64,000 nucleotides of DNA. Source: Escherichia phage teqskov. Every line of letters begins with the position of its first letter. Positions within the stretch are counted from its first letter, which is position 1. Below, piece by piece: positions 14,727 through 59,759 of the stretch. Location: sequence record NC_054934.1. One strand, written 5' to 3'. The position numbers and the translations under genes were made by a program. A model generated the notes under the pieces. The model was given only the letters and a program-made list of their open reading frames with translations. It made no database searches and had not been told where the DNA came from.

Positions 14727-14733
14727 ATAAAAA

Positions 14734-14749
14734 GGGACCGAAAGGTCCC
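14734..14749. terminator. hairpin GGGACC-GAAA-GGTCCC between convergent rnlB and gene 24
   Basis: GNRA tetraloop hairpin flanked by A/T runs on both sides. Confidence 0.65.
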
Positions 14750-14755
14750 TTTGCT

Positions 14756-35432: not shown

Positions 35433-35463
35433 AAGAAAAAGGGAGCCCATGGGCTCCCTTAAT

Positions 35464-47407: not shown

Positions 47408-48104
<697 letters not shown>

Positions 48105-48116
48105 CTTCATAAAGTT

Positions 48117-48146
48117 GTTTACACGCTGATGAGGTAGTGATACTAT
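48117..48146 (+). promoter_or_regulatory. T4-type early promoter (GTTTAC-N18-TACTAT), ip cassette 1
   Basis: -35 at 48117, extended -10 TG-a-TACTAT at 48141; ATG at 48177. Confidence 0.65.
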
Positions 48147-48176
48147 TACCTCATCAAAATTAATTAGGAAAATAAA

Positions 48177-48434
48177 ATGAAAACTTATAAAGAGTTTGCT
48201 ACAGAAACTATTATCACTGAATCTTCTCATGGTATGGAAGTAAAGCTTGGAATGGCTTTAGCTGAAGCTGAGCGTCTTTTTTCTCGTATTAAAGAACTTG
48301 CTGCTGCAGTCGATCCTTCATCTTTTAAAGGAGACCAAACTAAAGTTAAAGCACTTTTAGCATTATGCTCTGATGCAGGAGAAATCGCTAAGAACGGTTC
48401 TAAGATGAAGAAACGATTAGAAGATTTAAAATAA
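48177..48434 (+). CDS. internal-protein-like small protein with capsid targeting signal (CTS)
   Basis: N-terminus MKTYKEFATE matches the CTS consensus of T4 internal proteins; own early promoter. Confidence 0.6.
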   Translation: MKTYKEFATETIITESSHGMEVKLGMALAEAERLFSRIKELAAAVDPSSFKGDQTKVKALLALCSDAGEIAKNGSKMKKRLEDLK

Positions 48435-48446
48435 TTTCACAAAGTT

Positions 48447-48476
48447 GTTTACACGGGGTTTTAGTAGTGATACTAT
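48447..48476 (+). promoter_or_regulatory. T4-type early promoter (GTTTAC-N18-TACTAT), ip cassette 2
   Basis: -35 at 48447, -10 at 48471; ATG at 48513. Confidence 0.65.
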
Positions 48477-48512
48477 TACCCTATCAAAACAAATGTGAAA
48501 TTGGAGAATAAA

Positions 48513-48746
48513 ATGAAAACGTATCAAGAATTTATTGCTGAAGCTGCTGATGTAAAAGTTGAGTTTATTTACATTGGCAAGAAAGATAAAATGGGCGAAA
48601 TGCCTCATGGAGTTCTTCGTGATGCATTAGATAATTTCGGTCAACTCGGTGGTGAAGAGTTTGGTGATTATTTTGTTATCTATGGACCAGAAAAAGTCAT
48701 CGAGAAATGGGCTGATAAATATAAATCAATTTTTCGTAAAAAATAA
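48513..48746 (+). CDS. internal-protein-like small protein with CTS (IPI-family candidate)
   Basis: ORF-track start 48495 is GTG; ATG at 48513 with GGAGAA upstream gives MKTYQEFIAEA... (77 aa); own early promoter. Confidence 0.6.
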   Translation: MKTYQEFIAEAADVKVEFIYIGKKDKMGEMPHGVLRDALDNFGQLGGEEFGDYFVIYGPEKVIEKWADKYKSIFRKK

Positions 48747-48776
48747 GTTTACTTTTAGATAGGGTAGTGATACTAT
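48747..48776 (+). promoter_or_regulatory. T4-type early promoter (GTTTAC-N18-TACTAT), cassette 3
   Basis: -35 at 48747, -10 at 48771; ATG at 48805. Confidence 0.65.
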
Positions 48777-48804
48777 TACCCTATCTACTACTGAGGAGAA
48801 TAAA

Positions 48805-48990
48805 ATGAAACGTTGTGAATTAATTCGAAATGTTGCTATTGCAATTTCTGCTTCCGCTTTTAGTTTTTCAATGTTTGTTGGATTTATATGCGGATTATTA
48901 ACTACAGCAGAAAATGTGTTTTCACTTGTAGTAGCATTTTTAATTGGTTTAATCGCTATCGTTATGGATAAAATTTCTAAAGGTGAATAG
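48805..48990 (+). CDS. small hydrophobic membrane protein (61 aa, two predicted TM helices)
   Basis: own early promoter; GAGGAG upstream of ATG; hydrophobic composition. Confidence 0.5.
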   Translation: MKRCELIRNVAIAISASAFSFSMFVGFICGLLTTAENVFSLVVAFLIGLIAIVMDKISKGE

Positions 48991-49401
48991 ATGAGTATTA
49001 ACGAATATTATGTTTATGCCGGGGATTATGCAAATCCTTCTCATTTTGAAGGTAATTTAATACCTGATAAAGTTTTTAATACTCCTTTTGAAGCGTGGAG
49101 TTGGATTGAAAGTAAAAATGGATTTTCTTACCGTTATGTTGAAGTAACTGATTGGAGAGGAACTAAATATCCTAAAGACCATTATTACGTAAATCCATCT
49201 AAGGTAAATTTTCTTTTATTCGCAGGTGATAATTATTATCCTTGTGGCGGATATGATGATTTAATTGCGTATGCTGAAACAGAAGATAAACTGCGTGATA
49301 TCATTAAAGAAAATGAAAATAAACCAGATTATGGTTCCAATCGTTTCGACTGGTGGCAAATCGTAAATGCCCATACTCATGCTATCGTTGATAGAGGCTG
49401 A
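48991..49401 (+). CDS. hypothetical protein (136 aa)
   Basis: ORF with phage-like composition; coupled to downstream ORF. Confidence 0.5.
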   Translation: MSINEYYVYAGDYANPSHFEGNLIPDKVFNTPFEAWSWIESKNGFSYRYVEVTDWRGTKYPKDHYYVNPSKVNFLLFAGDNYYPCGGYDDLIAYAETEDKLRDIIKENENKPDYGSNRFDWWQIVNAHTHAIVDRG

Positions 49402-49403
49402 TA

Positions 49404-49697
49404 ATGATTCTTTATGCTAAAGTATCATCCATTGAAAATGGATATAAATATGATCAAGAAGCAGCTAAAGCCTTGATTGATGATTATGGCATTTTAACAT
49501 GTTTTGAAGTTGAAAAGGTTTACATTGACCGTTCATCTTCTCAGGTTAAATTAGTGAAGGAAGACCGTAAATTTAATACAGTAAATTTTGATTTCTTTAT
49601 TGAAACGGAAAAAGGTCCTCTTGAATATGATATTTTCAAGAATCCTTTGGGTCTTGAATGTATTGAATATACTTACATTAATATGGTGAGCAAATGA
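49404..49697 (+). CDS. hypothetical protein (97 aa)
   Basis: ORF 2 nt after previous stop. Confidence 0.5.
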   Translation: MILYAKVSSIENGYKYDQEAAKALIDDYGILTCFEVEKVYIDRSSSQVKLVKEDRKFNTVNFDFFIETEKGPLEYDIFKNPLGLECIEYTYINMVSK

Positions 49698-51589: not shown

Positions 51590-51859
51590 CCTGAGTAAGG
51601 AATTGCGTTAATAATCTTTGCGTTTATTGATGCCCTCTTACATCACAGCAGAAACGGCGCACCGAATTATCGATTCGAGGAAATATCTTTGCCGTAAGCC
51701 GAGTAGCGTTTTTGACGGAACGTTCGGATATGGTCGAGATATGGCCTTTTAAAAATATTGAGTAGCGTCAACTACTTAATAACCGGGTTCAAGTCCCGGC
51801 GTTTCGTACAAACACTTGCCTTAGCAGGTGGAACCCCGACAAGGTTGCCGCAAGGCTTA
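51590..51859 (+). ncRNA. structured non-coding region, possible small stable RNA(s) as at the distal end of the T4 tRNA cluster
   Basis: no ORF; tRNA-like T-arm hairpin CCGGG-TTCAAGT-CCCGG and several inverted repeats; ends at a rho-independent terminator. Confidence 0.25.
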
Positions 51860-51886
51860 GCCCCGACCGAAAGGTTGGGGCTTTTT
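51860..51886 (+). terminator. rho-independent terminator (CCCCGACC-GAAA-GGTTGGGG then CTTTTT)
   Basis: 8-bp GC-rich stem, GAAA loop, T-run. Confidence 0.7.
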
Positions 51887-51932
51887 AGTATAAATAAGTA
51901 TATTAAAACCACGAATTAAAACAGGAAATAAG

Positions 51933-52406
51933 ATGAAATCATATGCTCAATTTTTAAATGAAGCGGTGTTAAATGAAGCATCTAGCACTGAAATTCAAGC
52001 TGTTGCAAAAGCTGCCATTGCCGCGGGTAAATATTCCTATAAAGATGCTTCCGATGAATCACGATTCCAATTTGCTCGTGATATGAAAGCCGAAGGATTT
52101 ACAGGGAATGCAGTTAGTATGGCTTGGAAAAGTTTAGTTGCTACTGGAGCTGCTTTTGCAAAGGCTTCAGGTAAACCTGCTCCTAAGGCTGATCCTAAAG
52201 CAGCACAAGAAAAAAATATTGCTAAAGGAATTATCTCTAGGTATGAAGCAATTCTTAAAGAACTTTTGATAATCAAAACTGAAGGCCAAAAGCTAGCTCG
52301 TGCTTATAGTTTCAAAGATAACCCACATGTTCACTCTCTTGAATATGTTGAAGACATCCAAAAAATTATTAAAGACCGCATTTGGTCTGCTAAACAAATC
52401 AAATAA
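51933..52406 (+). CDS. CTS-bearing putative internal (head-packaged) protein, 157 aa, Lys/Ala-rich
   Basis: N-terminus MKSYAQFLNEAVLNEA resembles the CTS with L-x-E cleavage motifs; followed by a terminator. Confidence 0.5.
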   Translation: MKSYAQFLNEAVLNEASSTEIQAVAKAAIAAGKYSYKDASDESRFQFARDMKAEGFTGNAVSMAWKSLVATGAAFAKASGKPAPKADPKAAQEKNIAKGIISRYEAILKELLIIKTEGQKLARAYSFKDNPHVHSLEYVEDIQKIIKDRIWSAKQIK

Positions 52407-52981: not shown

Positions 52982-53194
52982 ATGACTACTTTAATTATTT
53001 GGTTCGACGAAAATGAAGAAACATACTGCGTGAACATTGGCGAAAGCCCAATGCCAGAATTTGAATCTTCAGATAAAAACTCGGTTGTATCTTGGGCTGA
53101 AGGTTATAAAGCAGCAAAAGGCGATGTTGAAATAGTTTACAAACTCTTGGGAGTAGAGTATAATACTCCCACGGATTATAAAACCCTTAATTAA
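52982..53194 (+). CDS. hypothetical protein (70 aa)
   Basis: ORF with GGAGAA upstream. Confidence 0.5.
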
Positions 53195-56076: not shown

Positions 56077-56607
<531 letters not shown>

Positions 56608-56666
56608 AGTTGTTTACTTTCTCCTAGAATTGTGATAGTATATTCACAGTTACTTGGAGGGATAAA

Positions 56667-57083
56667 ATGACTCGTATTAATTTGACTTTAGTATCTGAAC
56701 TTGCTGATCAACATTTAATCGCAGAATACCGTGAATTGCCACGTGTTTTTGGTATAGTTCGTAAGCATGTGGCAAACGGTAAGCGCGTTAAAGATTTTAA
56801 AATATCTTCCGAGTTTATTTTAGGTTCTGGTCATGTTACGTTCTTTTACGATAAGTTAGAATTTTTGCGAAAGCGTCAATTAGACATTATAACGGAATGC
56901 TTAAAACGAGGGTTCAGTATAAAAGATACTGAAGTTCCTGACATCAGCGATATTCCAGTAGAATGGAAAAATGATTATAATCCATGCAAATCAGCTATTA
57001 AATTGAGTCAACAACGACTTGATGAAAAAATTTTAATGAAACCACATTGGTATAAGTATTACGGTAAAAATATTTACATTTAA
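56667..57083 (+). CDS. denV: endonuclease V (pyrimidine-dimer DNA glycosylase) DenV
   Basis: 138 aa; [17 protein letters not shown]... recognised. Confidence 0.9.
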
Positions 57084-57092
57084 AGGAAACAT

Positions 57093-57566
57093 ATGAAAAC
57101 ATATCAAGAATTTATCACTGAAGCAGCTATTAATTCTCAAATTATTGCTGAATCTTTTACCGATCTTTTGAAATTTAAAAAAGGTCAAAAAATCACTGCT
57201 GTATTGGATGATGGTACAGAAGTTGAGATGGATGTACAGGGATATAATTATGCAGTAGATGGAAAACTGTATAATAAATCTCATGCTAAATTTGATTCAT
57301 TTGACGACTTTGTTAATACAGTTGAAGATGAAAAAACTCGTAGATCCATTGCAACTGGTGATGCTAAGGTTCTTATGGCACATGGTCATGAACGCATTCG
57401 CGCTAAACAGAATAAAATGGGTGAAGATAATTTTGCATTAGTTGGTTATCAATCTGGTAAACAAACTTATGGCTATCAACGTACTGCTACCATGTATAAT
57501 AAAAATGGTAAAATCGCTTTCGTGAATAGTAAAGGTTCTATTCAGTACGTTAAATCGTTCAAATAA
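57093..57566 (+). CDS. CTS-bearing internal protein (ipII/ipIII locus), 157 aa
   Basis: N-terminus MKTYQEFITEAAINSQIIAE; position after denV corresponds to T4 ipII/ipIII. Confidence 0.6.
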   Translation: MKTYQEFITEAAINSQIIAESFTDLLKFKKGQKITAVLDDGTEVEMDVQGYNYAVDGKLYNKSHAKFDSFDDFVNTVEDEKTRRSIATGDAKVLMAHGHERIRAKQNKMGEDNFALVGYQSGKQTYGYQRTATMYNKNGKIAFVNSKGSIQYVKSFK

Positions 57567-59702: not shown

Positions 59703-59732
59703 GTTTACTTTTCCTCTTGACTGTGGTATAAT
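59703..59732 (+). promoter_or_regulatory. T4-type early promoter (GTTTAC-N18-TATAAT) for regB
   Basis: -35 GTTTAC at 59703, -10 TATAAT at 59727, ATG at 59760. Confidence 0.7.
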
Positions 59733-59759
59733 TTTTCTATCAGTTAAGAGGAGAATAAC

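Follow-up and report, generated by a model that had tools for sequence, protein, structure and literature searches.

The 64-kb window, meaning the whole stretch of phage DNA analyzed here, is 95-98.6% identical to T6, PST, and other relatives, which identifies it as a T6/PST-like member of Tequatrovirus. Four genes follow one another on the plus strand in the order 57B, ip5, ip6, and trna.4, which is the arrangement of the T-even internal-protein (ipI) locus. Both ends of the locus are conserved. The left anchor is the Acb1-like gene 57B (47646-48104), annotated as 57B or anti-CBASS in related records, whose protein is 100% identical to that of T4. The right anchor is trna.4 (48805-48990), a 61-aa membrane ORF. 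Between them lie two internal-protein genes, also on the plus strand. The first, ip5 or ipV (48177-48434), encodes 85 amino acids with a capsid-targeting leader (MKTYKEF...) and is annotated as Ip5 in JB75 and IpV in PST. The second, ip6 or ipVI (48513-48746), was assigned the ATG start that yields the conserved leader (MKTYQEFIAE...). The products of ip cassettes are injected anti-restriction proteins, and Ip1, Ip2, and Ip3 each inhibit a different GmrSD enzyme (PMC12373910).

Three tandem early promoters are found 3' of 57B, each in an intergenic block that extends from the upstream stop codon to the downstream Shine-Dalgarno sequence (SD) and start codon. Over about 70 bp, the block comprises an AT-rich upstream region, the -35 element GTTTAC, a 17-bp spacer, a TGn-extended -10, the predicted start site, and the SD. 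Block 1, in the 57B-ip5 intergenic space (48105-48176, plus strand), contains a promoter-like match with a TG extension. Its -35 hexamer TTTACA (48118-48123) is set in the T4 early motif GTTTAC (48117-48122). The extended -10 GTGATACTAT (48137-48146), with the TG at 48138-48139 and the hexamer TACTAT at 48141-48146, forms the loop of a perfect palindrome. The left arm TGATGAGGTA (48127-48136) lies in the promoter spacer from -26 to -17, and the right arm TACCTCATCA (48147-48156) spans -6 to +4 and includes the predicted start, an A at 48153. Block 3, between ip6 and trna.4 (48747-48804, plus strand), has GTTTAC at 48747-48752 and the SD GAGGAG. An inverted-repeat search gave its left arm TAGATAGGGTA (48756-48766) and right arm TACCCTATCTA (48777-48787), the latter including the predicted start A at 48783, on either side of the extended -10 loop GTGATACTAT (48767-48776).

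Palindromes thus bracket the extended -10 in two of the three promoters. A preliminary description of this DNA had quoted four 9-bp arms at blocks 1 and 3. All four are present where it placed them, and the perfect stems are in fact longer, at 10 bp in cassette 1 and 11 bp in cassette 3, each with the 10-nt loop GTGATACTAT. Two stem positions distinguish the palindromes from each other, and at both of these the two arms are altered together (G-C to A-T and A-T to G-C). The arms occupy variable promoter positions, namely the spacer and -6 to +4, and the conserved -10 is the loop. The 64-kb window contains three exact matches to GTGATACTAT, one at each of the ip-locus promoters and none elsewhere. 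With loops limited to 3-14 nt, the window contains 12 perfect hairpins of 9 bp or longer, compared with 5.2 +/- 2.1 in dinucleotide shuffles, and two of the 12 sit in identical register on an identical promoter motif. The chance of at least 9 complementary bases around one given loop, calculated from the window composition, is about 1e-5. Stems spanning a -10 also occur at the window promoters at 53136, 56613, and 59704, all of which lie in the early region; the late-gene part has none.

Block 2, between ip5 and ip6 (48435-48512, plus strand), is arranged differently. The -35 is at 48448-48453, the loop GTGATACTAT is at 48467-48476, and the right arm TACCCTATC is at 48477-48485. On the left side of this cassette (48447-48485), only three pairs are in register. 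The preliminary description had concluded that only the right arm is kept, and had taken this as a sign of a recombination breakpoint inside the promoter. The first statement holds for the in-register pairs but is overstated, because a displaced two-part stem still folds: GGGGT (48455-48459) and TAGTA (48462-48466) serve as an imperfect left arm, giving the pairs GGGGU/ACCCU and UAGUA/UACUA with a GUGA loop (-14.6 kcal/mol, z = -3.9). The breakpoint is not supported. The displaced left arm recurs in other phages at their ip6 promoter, and in T4 at the trna.4 promoter, as a perfect 7-bp stem, ATAGGGT...ACCCTAT. The displaced imperfect stem of cassette 2 is a conserved allele and not simply a broken promoter. 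Furthermore, an outer inverted repeat, AATTTCACA (48433-48441) and TGTGAAATT (48494-48502), encloses the entire promoter.

Promoters 1 and 2 read TTTACA-17-TACTAT with a TG extension (48118-48146 and 48448-48476), and promoter 3 reads TTTACT-17-TACTAT. All three predicted promoters match TTTACW-N17-TAYWAT, the consensus published for the PeSL promoters of PST/T4 (Comeau 2014, PMC4122927). By eye, no late motif TATAAATA or MotA-box was seen in the three blocks, and an Rfam scan of 47500-49500 at E <= 1 returned no matches.

The element class to which these blocks belong is already published, as PeSL and PeSL-like blocks that mediate cassette shuffling (Repoila 1994, Arbiol 2010, Comeau 2014). 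The palindromes noted previously are correct but ordinary: they are those of the already described PeSL-like blocks beside swappable ip genes. The T-even ip blocks of Repoila 1994 (EMBO J 13:4181), as described by Arbiol 2010 and Comeau 2014, are at the same locus, from 57B through the ip genes to trna.4. The units are the same untranslated stretches of ~70 bp, in which translation signals and an AT-rich stem-loop, variable in size, accompany a T4 early promoter, and they likewise flank interchangeable ip ORFs with a conserved leader. From these descriptions, no essential difference from our blocks is apparent. The PeSLs of RB49/phi1, PST/T4, and nt-1/KVP40 likewise combine an early promoter with a stem-loop within a short stretch between genes. 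Their stem-loops lie mostly between -35 and -10 or overlap the -10 (Arbiol 2010, PMC2839356; Comeau 2014, PMC4122927), and they share with the ip-locus blocks the frequent position over the -10, G-T pairs in the stem, and a promoter consensus. For PST, the stem-loops were placed "just upstream" of the promoter (Comeau 2014, PMC4122927). The PST sequence record does not annotate PeSL features, and the ip promoters and junctions are not covered in the eLife 2022 study of T4 deletions or the Nat Commun 2025 study of Ip proteins.

PeSLs are repeated in hyperplastic regions and adjoin insertions, deletions, and replacements. The same holds here: the block is present in three tandem copies, with further stems in the early region, and is associated with insertion, deletion, and replacement among close relatives. 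However, the T-even elements have been named PeSL-like analogues rather than homologues, having T4 early promoters and AT-richer stems (PMC2839356, PMC4122927). The RB49/phi1 stems are of the form GGGG...CCCC, and one cloned stem-loop (the SLS of PeSL211/210) reduced read-through like rrnB T1 in a lacZ reporter (Arbiol 2010, PMC2839356). The ip-locus stems, in contrast, are AT-richer and without a T-run, and their role is putative. Mini-circles from exchange between neighboring elements are a further trait of PeSLs.

Comparison of genomes shows how the blocks and the ip genes are combined. In an alignment of the window with T4 and RB69, conserved blocks surround unrelated ip ORFs: ip5 and ip6 in the window, ipI in T4, and ip and ipI in RB69. 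Phage L030 is without the ip5 cassette, and the deletion falls upstream of the left arm. Promoters with chimeric arms are present in L044, L076, and KM16. L044 has a left arm of type 2 joined to a right arm of type 1, and a type 3 left arm is paired with a type 1 right arm in all three phages. Some ip genes of KM16 have no promoter block at all, with fusions at AAAATAA microhomology. In L076, TACTATTACCTCATCAA is duplicated, which suggests slippage. The left arm of the trna.4 promoter is ATAGGGT-TTTAG in T4 and TTTTAG-ATAGGGTA in the window, and the difference looks like a circular permutation. Because chimeras with weakened stems persist in several phages and ip genes without a block occur in KM16, the hairpin is dispensable. 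Arbiol 2010 likened such elements to the attC cassettes of integrons, which are also single-ORF units with an imperfect palindromic boundary, exchangeable between genomes. Unlike integrons, the ip locus has no integrase, each cassette has its own promoter, and exchange is thought to occur by general homologous recombination.

Next, we consider conservation of the stem itself. The 72-nt block 1 is found at at least 95% identity in 375 phage records, T4 among them, and the T4 ipI promoter has a 10-bp palindrome identical to that of cassette 1. Homologous promoters also carry many unrelated arm sequences, including TGATGAGGTA, GATAGGGTA, TGGTAGGAGC, GTGTAGGAGC, TGGTAGAAGAC, CCGGAAGT, AGGTCTATAG, and others. 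In a set of 93 distinct GTTTAC-N14-GTGATACTAT promoters, 51.3% of the cells of the in-register 9-bp helix are paired; shuffles give 43.8 +/- 1.3 (0/500), and slid controls give 36-42%. For the same promoters, covariation scores 0.284 versus 0.194 (0/500). The arm comparison across T-even promoters proposed in the preliminary description therefore does reveal covariation, as the arms differ yet stay complementary. Among 250 T-even-type promoter-like sites, a stem with 8 or more Watson-Crick pairs spans the -10 in 22.8%, as opposed to 4.0% when the right flanks are swapped, which is an enrichment of about sixfold for such stems. T-even-type promoters show register shifts of up to several bases and loops of 4 to about 18 nt.

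We also asked where hairpins are centred, scanning 190 nt around each GTTTAC, with 80 nt on its upstream and 110 nt on its downstream side. Near 127 non-redundant promoters, this gave 39 perfect hairpins of 8 bp or longer, 19 of them centred within ~7 nt of the -10. Matches to GTTTAC-N15-TGGTATAAT, mostly on non-T-even contigs, were kept out of the main data and served as a negative control; here only 1 of 29 hairpins was centred on the -10, and stems were not enriched. The orthologous promoters of RB69, IME08, Roth01, and MP1 retain a hairpin spanning the -10 with different arms and registers, and orthologous promoters from five genera repeatedly carry arms of independent sequence. Single mismatches in the stem are more often G.T than A.C (20 versus 4 in the 250-site set; 26 versus 6 by sequence and 11 versus 5 by cluster). 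This excess is at most suggestive of structure at the RNA level, and could alternatively stem from strand-biased C-to-T mutation in the open-complex bubble.

Sense-strand folds of cassettes 1, 2, and 3 have energies of -17.4, -14.6, and -18.5 kcal/mol (z = -5.9, -3.9, and -4.7), versus -13.8, -10.1, and -14.7 kcal/mol for the antisense strand. The promoter consensus predicts a start at a conserved A 7 bases past the -10, at 48153, 48483, and 48783. As this predicted start is within the right arm, the hairpin would be possible only in RNA arriving from upstream and not in the promoter's own transcript. The predicted own transcripts are essentially without structure (-2.8, -1.3, and -5.3 kcal/mol for cassettes 1, 2, and 3). 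The sequence comparisons thus point to a stem-loop that is selected for pairing, is centred on the -10, and, given the predicted start, would be absent from the promoter's own RNA.

Two roles for such a hairpin in read-through RNA were tried and rejected. A translational block was assessed by partition-function folding of the read-through and own RNAs. From SD to AUG, the mean probability of being unpaired, in read-through versus own RNA, is 0.83 versus 0.87 in cassette 1 and 0.59 versus 0.68 in cassette 3. The ribosome binding site is not sequestered in these two cassettes, so no translational effect is predicted. In cassette 2, the values are 0.45 versus 0.67, a partial effect via the outer repeat. 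The identity of a canonical terminator was rejected as well. A terminator scan gave no match at any of the three hairpins, their stems have few G-C pairs, and their 3' tails (AAAATTAATT, AAAACAAATG, and CTACTGAGGA) contain no T-run. With intrinsic terminators they share a stable RNA hairpin right after a stop codon but lack the T-run and the G-C richness, and because the T-run is lacking, the "terminator" label of RB49/phi1 is not simply transferable to the ip-locus hairpins. The stem-loop is neither a canonical terminator nor an operator, and at these three cassettes it is not a translational switch either.

A parallel in logic is T4 gene e, together with soc, 49, and I-TevI, where a promoter lies within a hairpin that blocks translation of read-through RNA. 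The start predicted inside the structure would give the ip-locus blocks the same logic, with only RNA initiated upstream able to fold. The trna.4 promoter of phage X20 is a gene e-type arrangement at this same locus, with a 16-bp stem reaching from the -35 to the SD/AUG, and pairing with the SD also occurs at two window promoters, those at 56613 and 59704. Unlike the gene e type, the hairpins of cassettes 1 and 3 end ~10 nt before the SD and leave it free, and the embedded promoter is early (sigma-70) rather than late.

Several other explanations of the stem have to be weighed. The palindrome itself could be a recombination hot spot at the DNA level, where hairpin or cruciform extrusion or a replication stall targets breaks and template switches to the promoter core. 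The arms of mixed type in L044, L076, and KM16 put some crossovers between the arms, the L076 duplication and the permutation-like left arm at trna.4 are in keeping with such events, and the stem motif as a target of a recombination protein was a speculation of Arbiol 2010 (PMC2839356). However, the DNA hairpins are weak, at about -8 kcal/mol with a 10-nt loop, and poorly suited to cruciform extrusion; the L030 deletion and the KM16 fusions lie outside the arms; and the G.T excess points to a structure in one strand rather than a two-strand cruciform. Moreover, short homology patches suffice for T4 recombination (Arbiol 2010, PMC2839356), and the entire block provides them. We therefore consider a hot spot improbable. 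Of the earlier proposal that these are recombination sites, the part that stands concerns the conserved block as a whole, for which the literature, the alignment, and the chimeras all speak; a contribution of the palindrome beyond ~70 bp of homology is unsupported. Conversely, the stem could be functionless, with template switching or gene conversion between arms producing and re-perfecting palindromes in a highly recombinogenic phage, where they would persist in otherwise unconstrained spacer and discriminator positions. The arms do fall exactly in such positions, broken or chimeric versions are viable, and neither a T-run nor SD pairing nor any other canonical signal goes with the hairpins of cassettes 1 and 3. 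Against this stand the independent arms at orthologous promoters in five genera, the roughly sixfold enrichment of stems over swapped flanks, and the sharp hairpin peak on the -10, which is seen in T-even-type promoters only. A neutral mechanism would have to act at the -10 of T-even-type promoters only, and we judge this explanation unlikely too.

Readings in which the hairpin acts on its own promoter fare worse. Dyad symmetry centred on the -10 is the classic geometry of a repressor site, and a dimeric DNA-binding regulator covering the -10 could switch the early promoters off or on, the mechanism of T4 early promoter shut-off being unsettled (Hinton review). A sequence-specific dimer site is nonetheless unsupported, because the half-site is not conserved: the arms vary widely and freely among homologous promoters, registers and loop sizes shift, and complementarity alone is kept. 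With no candidate regulator known either, the operator suggested in the preliminary description is extremely unlikely. That description had also raised a transcript 5' hairpin affecting stability; placed on the RNA that the promoter itself makes, it would stabilize that RNA or tune its translation. Stem-loops at the 5' end do stabilize E. coli and T4 mRNAs. Here, however, the left arm covers -26 to -17 and the -10 itself forms the loop, both outside a transcript that would begin in the right arm and is predicted to be nearly unstructured, which leaves this option with hardly any probability. Hairpin-dependent promoters are known in phage N4 and the F-plasmid leading strand, and one could imagine that the non-template strand is transiently extruded here, such that a -10 in a single-stranded loop speeds open complex formation or allows structure-dependent control. 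The exact placement of the -10 in the loop, the strong centring, and the sense-strand bias would fit. However, the spacer is double-stranded in the open complex, so the left arm is not free, the energy of the DNA hairpin is low, and ~77% of T-even-type sites, many of them strong, have no stem of at least 8 bp, while chimeras persist. Such a promoter mechanism is highly improbable. A broader possibility is that one subclass of T-even early promoters uses the -10-centred hairpin as an active control device that depends on its structure. A putative phage factor might recognize the structure in the non-template strand or the RNA and so contribute to early promoter shut-off, or the hairpin might tell read-through RNA from locally initiated RNA by new means. 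If true, the hairpin would be more than an insulator or a homology patch, but we regard this as very unlikely.

The explanation that we favor, and consider probable, is that the blocks are the T4-type counterpart of PeSL, in which the hairpin marks or insulates the end of the upstream cistron and the blocks act as homology patches. RNA that reads through from the upstream gene would fold into a 10-14 bp hairpin just past its stop codon, if it forms in vivo as we infer from the folds, whereas RNA started at the promoter, with its first base predicted in the right arm, would be unstructured. The likeliest role of the hairpin would then be that of a marker or insulator where the upstream cistron ends: it may signal pausing or attenuation, or protect the 3' end, and the promoter's own transcript would be unaffected. 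Apart from any effect of the hairpin, the conserved blocks are patches of homology at which recombination between phages swaps, deletes, or inserts ip cassettes.

For the T-even AT-rich stem-loop, the present analysis narrows the range of possible roles. The role of the blocks themselves is already published: they allow ip genes to be swapped with correct expression kept. Because the ip products are anti-restriction proteins that can be exchanged via the blocks with expression intact, the ip blocks help set the host range of these phages.

The window derives from a Tequatrovirus near T6 and PST (best match, 98.6% identity). Its gene order, 1, 57A, 57B, ip5/ipV, ip6/ipVI, trna.4, trna.3, trna.2 and the tRNA cluster, identifies the "ip-locus cassettes" of the preliminary description as the classical ipI locus. 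Cassettes 1, 2 and 3 are tandem early promoters upstream of ip5, ip6 and trna.4. The perfect inverted repeats described at cassettes 1 and 3 are present in the sequence, and a repeat finder extends both, still perfect, to 10 bp in cassette 1 (TGATGAGGTA, 48127-48136; TACCTCATCA, 48147-48156) and 11 bp in cassette 3 (TAGATAGGGTA, 48756-48766; TACCCTATCTA, 48777-48787). Both enclose the same 10-nt loop, GTGATACTAT, which has exactly three copies in the window, one at each tandem promoter. Base pairs differ between the two stems at two positions, and each time both arms are altered. Upstream of T4 ipI, GTTTACATACTGATGAGGTAGTGATACTATTACCTCATCAAAATTAATTAGG contains a 10-bp palindrome identical to that of cassette 1, and 375 phage records share the 72-nt block between 57B and the ip gene at 95% identity or more. 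Perfect hairpins with stems of 9 bp or longer and loops of 3-14 nt number 12 in the window, compared with 5.2 ± 2.1 in shuffles. Chance does not explain why two of the 12, at cassettes 1 and 3, share a register on one promoter motif.

In cassette 1, a 17-bp spacer separates the -35 element TTTACA (48118-48123) from the -10 hexamer TACTAT (48141-48146), which has a TG extension (48138-48139). Positions -26 to -17, within the spacer, form the left arm, the extended -10 forms the loop, and positions -6 to +4 form the right arm. Because the intergenic spaces with these promoters are only about 58-78 nt, the arms occupy the only free promoter positions. An IMG/VR scan for GTTTAC-N14-GTGATACTAT returned 112 loci; adding the copies from the window, T4 and JB75 gave an unfiltered set of 93 distinct promoters. 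Their alignment shows the consensus CTTATCAA after the -10 and an A seven bases downstream. Standard sigma-70 spacing would make this A the start site, at 48153, 48483 and 48783. Given this predicted start, the hairpin would be absent from the promoter's own transcript and possible only in RNA from the upstream gene, which argues against the earlier suggestion of a hairpin at that transcript's 5′ end.

Across the 93 promoters, 51.3% of cells in the in-register 9-bp helix are paired, compared with 43.8 ± 1.3 in shuffles (0/500) and 36-42% in slid controls, and its covariation score is 0.284 vs 0.194 (0/500). The arms of T-even-type promoters covary, which is the check that the preliminary description had proposed. 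In any register, at least 8 Watson-Crick pairs form across the -10 at 57 of 250 T-even-type promoter-like sites (22.8%), compared with 4.0% in a right-flank swap control. Over a 190-nt stretch in 127 non-redundant promoters, 39 perfect hairpins have stems of 8 bp or more, and the centres of 19 of these fall within ~7 nt of the -10. As a control, GTTTAC-N15-TGGTATAAT sites, largely from non-T-even contigs, showed neither stem enrichment (3/137 vs 2.2%) nor a hairpin peak on the -10 (1/29). At the orthologous locus, RB69, IME08, Klebsiella phage Roth01 and Morganella phage MP1 retain a hairpin across the -10, built from other arms and in other registers; in Serratia phage X20 its place is taken by a 16-bp stem that reaches from the -35 to the SD/AUG of trna.4. 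Arm sequences are numerous and unrelated (TGGTAGGAGC, GTGTAGGAGC, TGGTAGAAGAC, CCGGAAGT, AGGTCTATAG, GGAGCTAT and others). In these alignments, the conserved property is pairing and not arm sequence, and selection acts on the palindromes to keep them paired. Operator sites for a regulator, also proposed initially, are not supported, since pairing rather than sequence is kept.

Sense-strand RNA is predicted to fold at -17.4, -14.6 and -18.5 kcal/mol for cassettes 1, 2 and 3 (z = -5.9, -3.9 and -4.7), and the antisense-strand folds are weaker. As DNA, the hairpins reach merely about -8 kcal/mol. Lone mismatches in otherwise good stems of the 250-site any-register survey are G·T vs A·C in 20 vs 4 cases, and a separate tally has 26 vs 6 when sequences are counted and 11 vs 5 when clusters are. 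This G·T excess is only suggestive of a one-strand, sense-strand structure, and strand-biased mutation could mimic it. The hairpins have no 3′ T-run at any of the three cassettes, which weakens a terminator role, and a terminator scan found no match at them. An Rfam scan of the locus likewise found no match. At cassettes 1 and 3, predicted SD-region accessibility is about equal in read-through RNA and in the promoter's own RNA.

Cassette 2 had been described as lacking its left arm, with a suggested recombination breakpoint inside the promoter. It is not a simple loss, as a displaced stem still folds (GGGGU/ACCCU plus UAGUA/UACUA around a GUGA loop). In other phages, the allele reads ATAGGGT-TTTAGTT-GTGATACTAT-T-ACCCTAT, in which 7 bp pair perfectly around a larger loop, and the T4 trna.4 promoter carries the ATAGGGT...ACCCTAT version. 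Judged from these sequences, cassette 2 is a conserved variant with no evidence of a fresh breakpoint. An outer perfect 9-bp inverted repeat (AATTTCACA, 48433-48441; TGTGAAATT, 48494-48502) surrounds the entire promoter; the ip6 promoters examined in other phages lack it. This repeat extends as far as the GGAG in the ribosome-binding site of ip6, and in read-through RNA it is predicted to reduce SD accessibility from 0.67 to 0.45.

In an alignment of the window, T4 and RB69, the conserved flanks comprise the 57B or ip gene end, the promoter, the SD and the first ~10 codons; they enclose unrelated ORF bodies. Among the compared phage loci, L030 is missing the ip5 cassette, L044 has a chimera of type-2 left and type-1 right arms, and type-3 left arms are joined to type-1 right arms in L044, L076 (59-140, with a duplicated TACTATTACCTCATCAA) and Salmonella phage KM16. 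In KM16 (L241, 130-420 and 690-750), two ip genes with overlapping stop/start codons (ATGA, TAATG) follow 57B without a promoter block, and the chimeric promoter precedes a third. Weakened stems are tolerated in phages with chimeric promoters. The proposed recombination role holds insofar as exchanges occur inside and around the blocks, but the junctions are not limited to the palindrome. Accounts of the palindrome as a DNA-level recombination hot spot, a neutral by-product of template switching or a promoter-intrinsic DNA hairpin are rated low, as are the operator and own-transcript readings; specific counter-evidence stands against each of the five. The trna.4 promoter spacer shows an apparent circular permutation between the window (48753-48766, TTTTAG-ATAGGGTA) and T4 (L114, 7555-7568, minus strand, ATAGGGT-TTTAGCT). 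A short tandem duplication and then deletion would fit, with the left arm shifted beside the -10 and the spacer still 17 bp.

Three further early-type promoters in the window have stems across the -10: 53136-53185 (TGGGAGTA/TACTCCCA), 56613-56665 (AATTGTGA/TCACAGTT, plus outer CTCC/GGAG pairing with the SD) and 59704-59755 (CCTCTTGACTG/CAGTTAAGAGG, with the SD inside the right arm). The latter two look like gene-e-type translation blocks on read-through RNA. Compared with T4, the second IP locus (56613-57566) is rearranged. Directly after gene e (56113-56607) comes the homologue of the T4 ipIII promoter (GTTTAC...GTGATAGTAT), which drives a 138-aa ORF (56667-57083) that we take, by eye, to be endonuclease V (denV)-like; an ip-like ORF (57093-57566, MKTYQEFITEA...) follows without its own GTTTAC promoter. 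Elsewhere, a 157-aa ORF (51933-52406) starts with MKSYAQFLNEA, like an internal-protein capsid-targeting leader. Upstream of it lie a G+C-rich hairpin with a T-run (GCCCCGACC GAAA GGTTGGGGC TTTTT; region 51845-52406) and, at about 51889, the T4 late-promoter motif TATAAATA. This ORF may represent an internal-protein-like gene that is expressed late and lies apart from the two classical IP loci. The ribosome-binding sites of ip6 (48502-48507) and trna.4 (48794-48799) contain GGAG, at which the T4 endoribonuclease RegB cuts, and that of ip5 (48166-48171) is AGGAAA; RegB sensitivity may differ among cassettes. Three perfect 9-bp G+C-rich hairpins with 4-nt loops in the late-gene part, at 922-943 (ATGGGGACC-TTTC-GGTCCCCAT), 14731-14752 (AAAGGGACC-GAAA-GGTCCCTTT) and 35439-35460 (AAGGGAGCC-CATG-GGCTCCCTT), look like stable-tetraloop terminators or stabilisers.

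Earlier work has already described this class of element, the locus itself and its part in shuffling cassettes. Arbiol et al. 2010 (PMC2839356) defined promoter-early stem-loop elements (PeSLs) in RB49/phi1, with the stem-loop mostly overlapping the -10 or between the -35 and -10, showed by experiment that one such stem-loop blocks read-through, and proposed shuffling via recombination between PeSLs, including mini-circles. A passage there on Repoila et al. 1994 places PeSL-like elements, T4 early promoters with weaker and AT-richer stems, at both T-even IP loci. Comeau et al. 2014 (PMC4122927) extended PeSLs to PST/T4, where the promoter consensus is TTTACW-N17-TAYWAT, and restated the connection to IP loci. 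In T4 genes e, soc, 49 and I-TevI, it is established that the promoter is embedded in a hairpin, so only read-through RNA folds. The best-supported reading of the ipI locus has three parts, the first and third of which are demonstrated or already in the literature. The blocks are compact promoter/stem-loop cassettes. The hairpin would form in read-through RNA right after the upstream stop codon, most likely causing pausing or attenuation, or protecting the 3′ end of the upstream mRNA, and locally initiated mRNA would remain unstructured. The conserved blocks also provide the homology for ip gene swaps.
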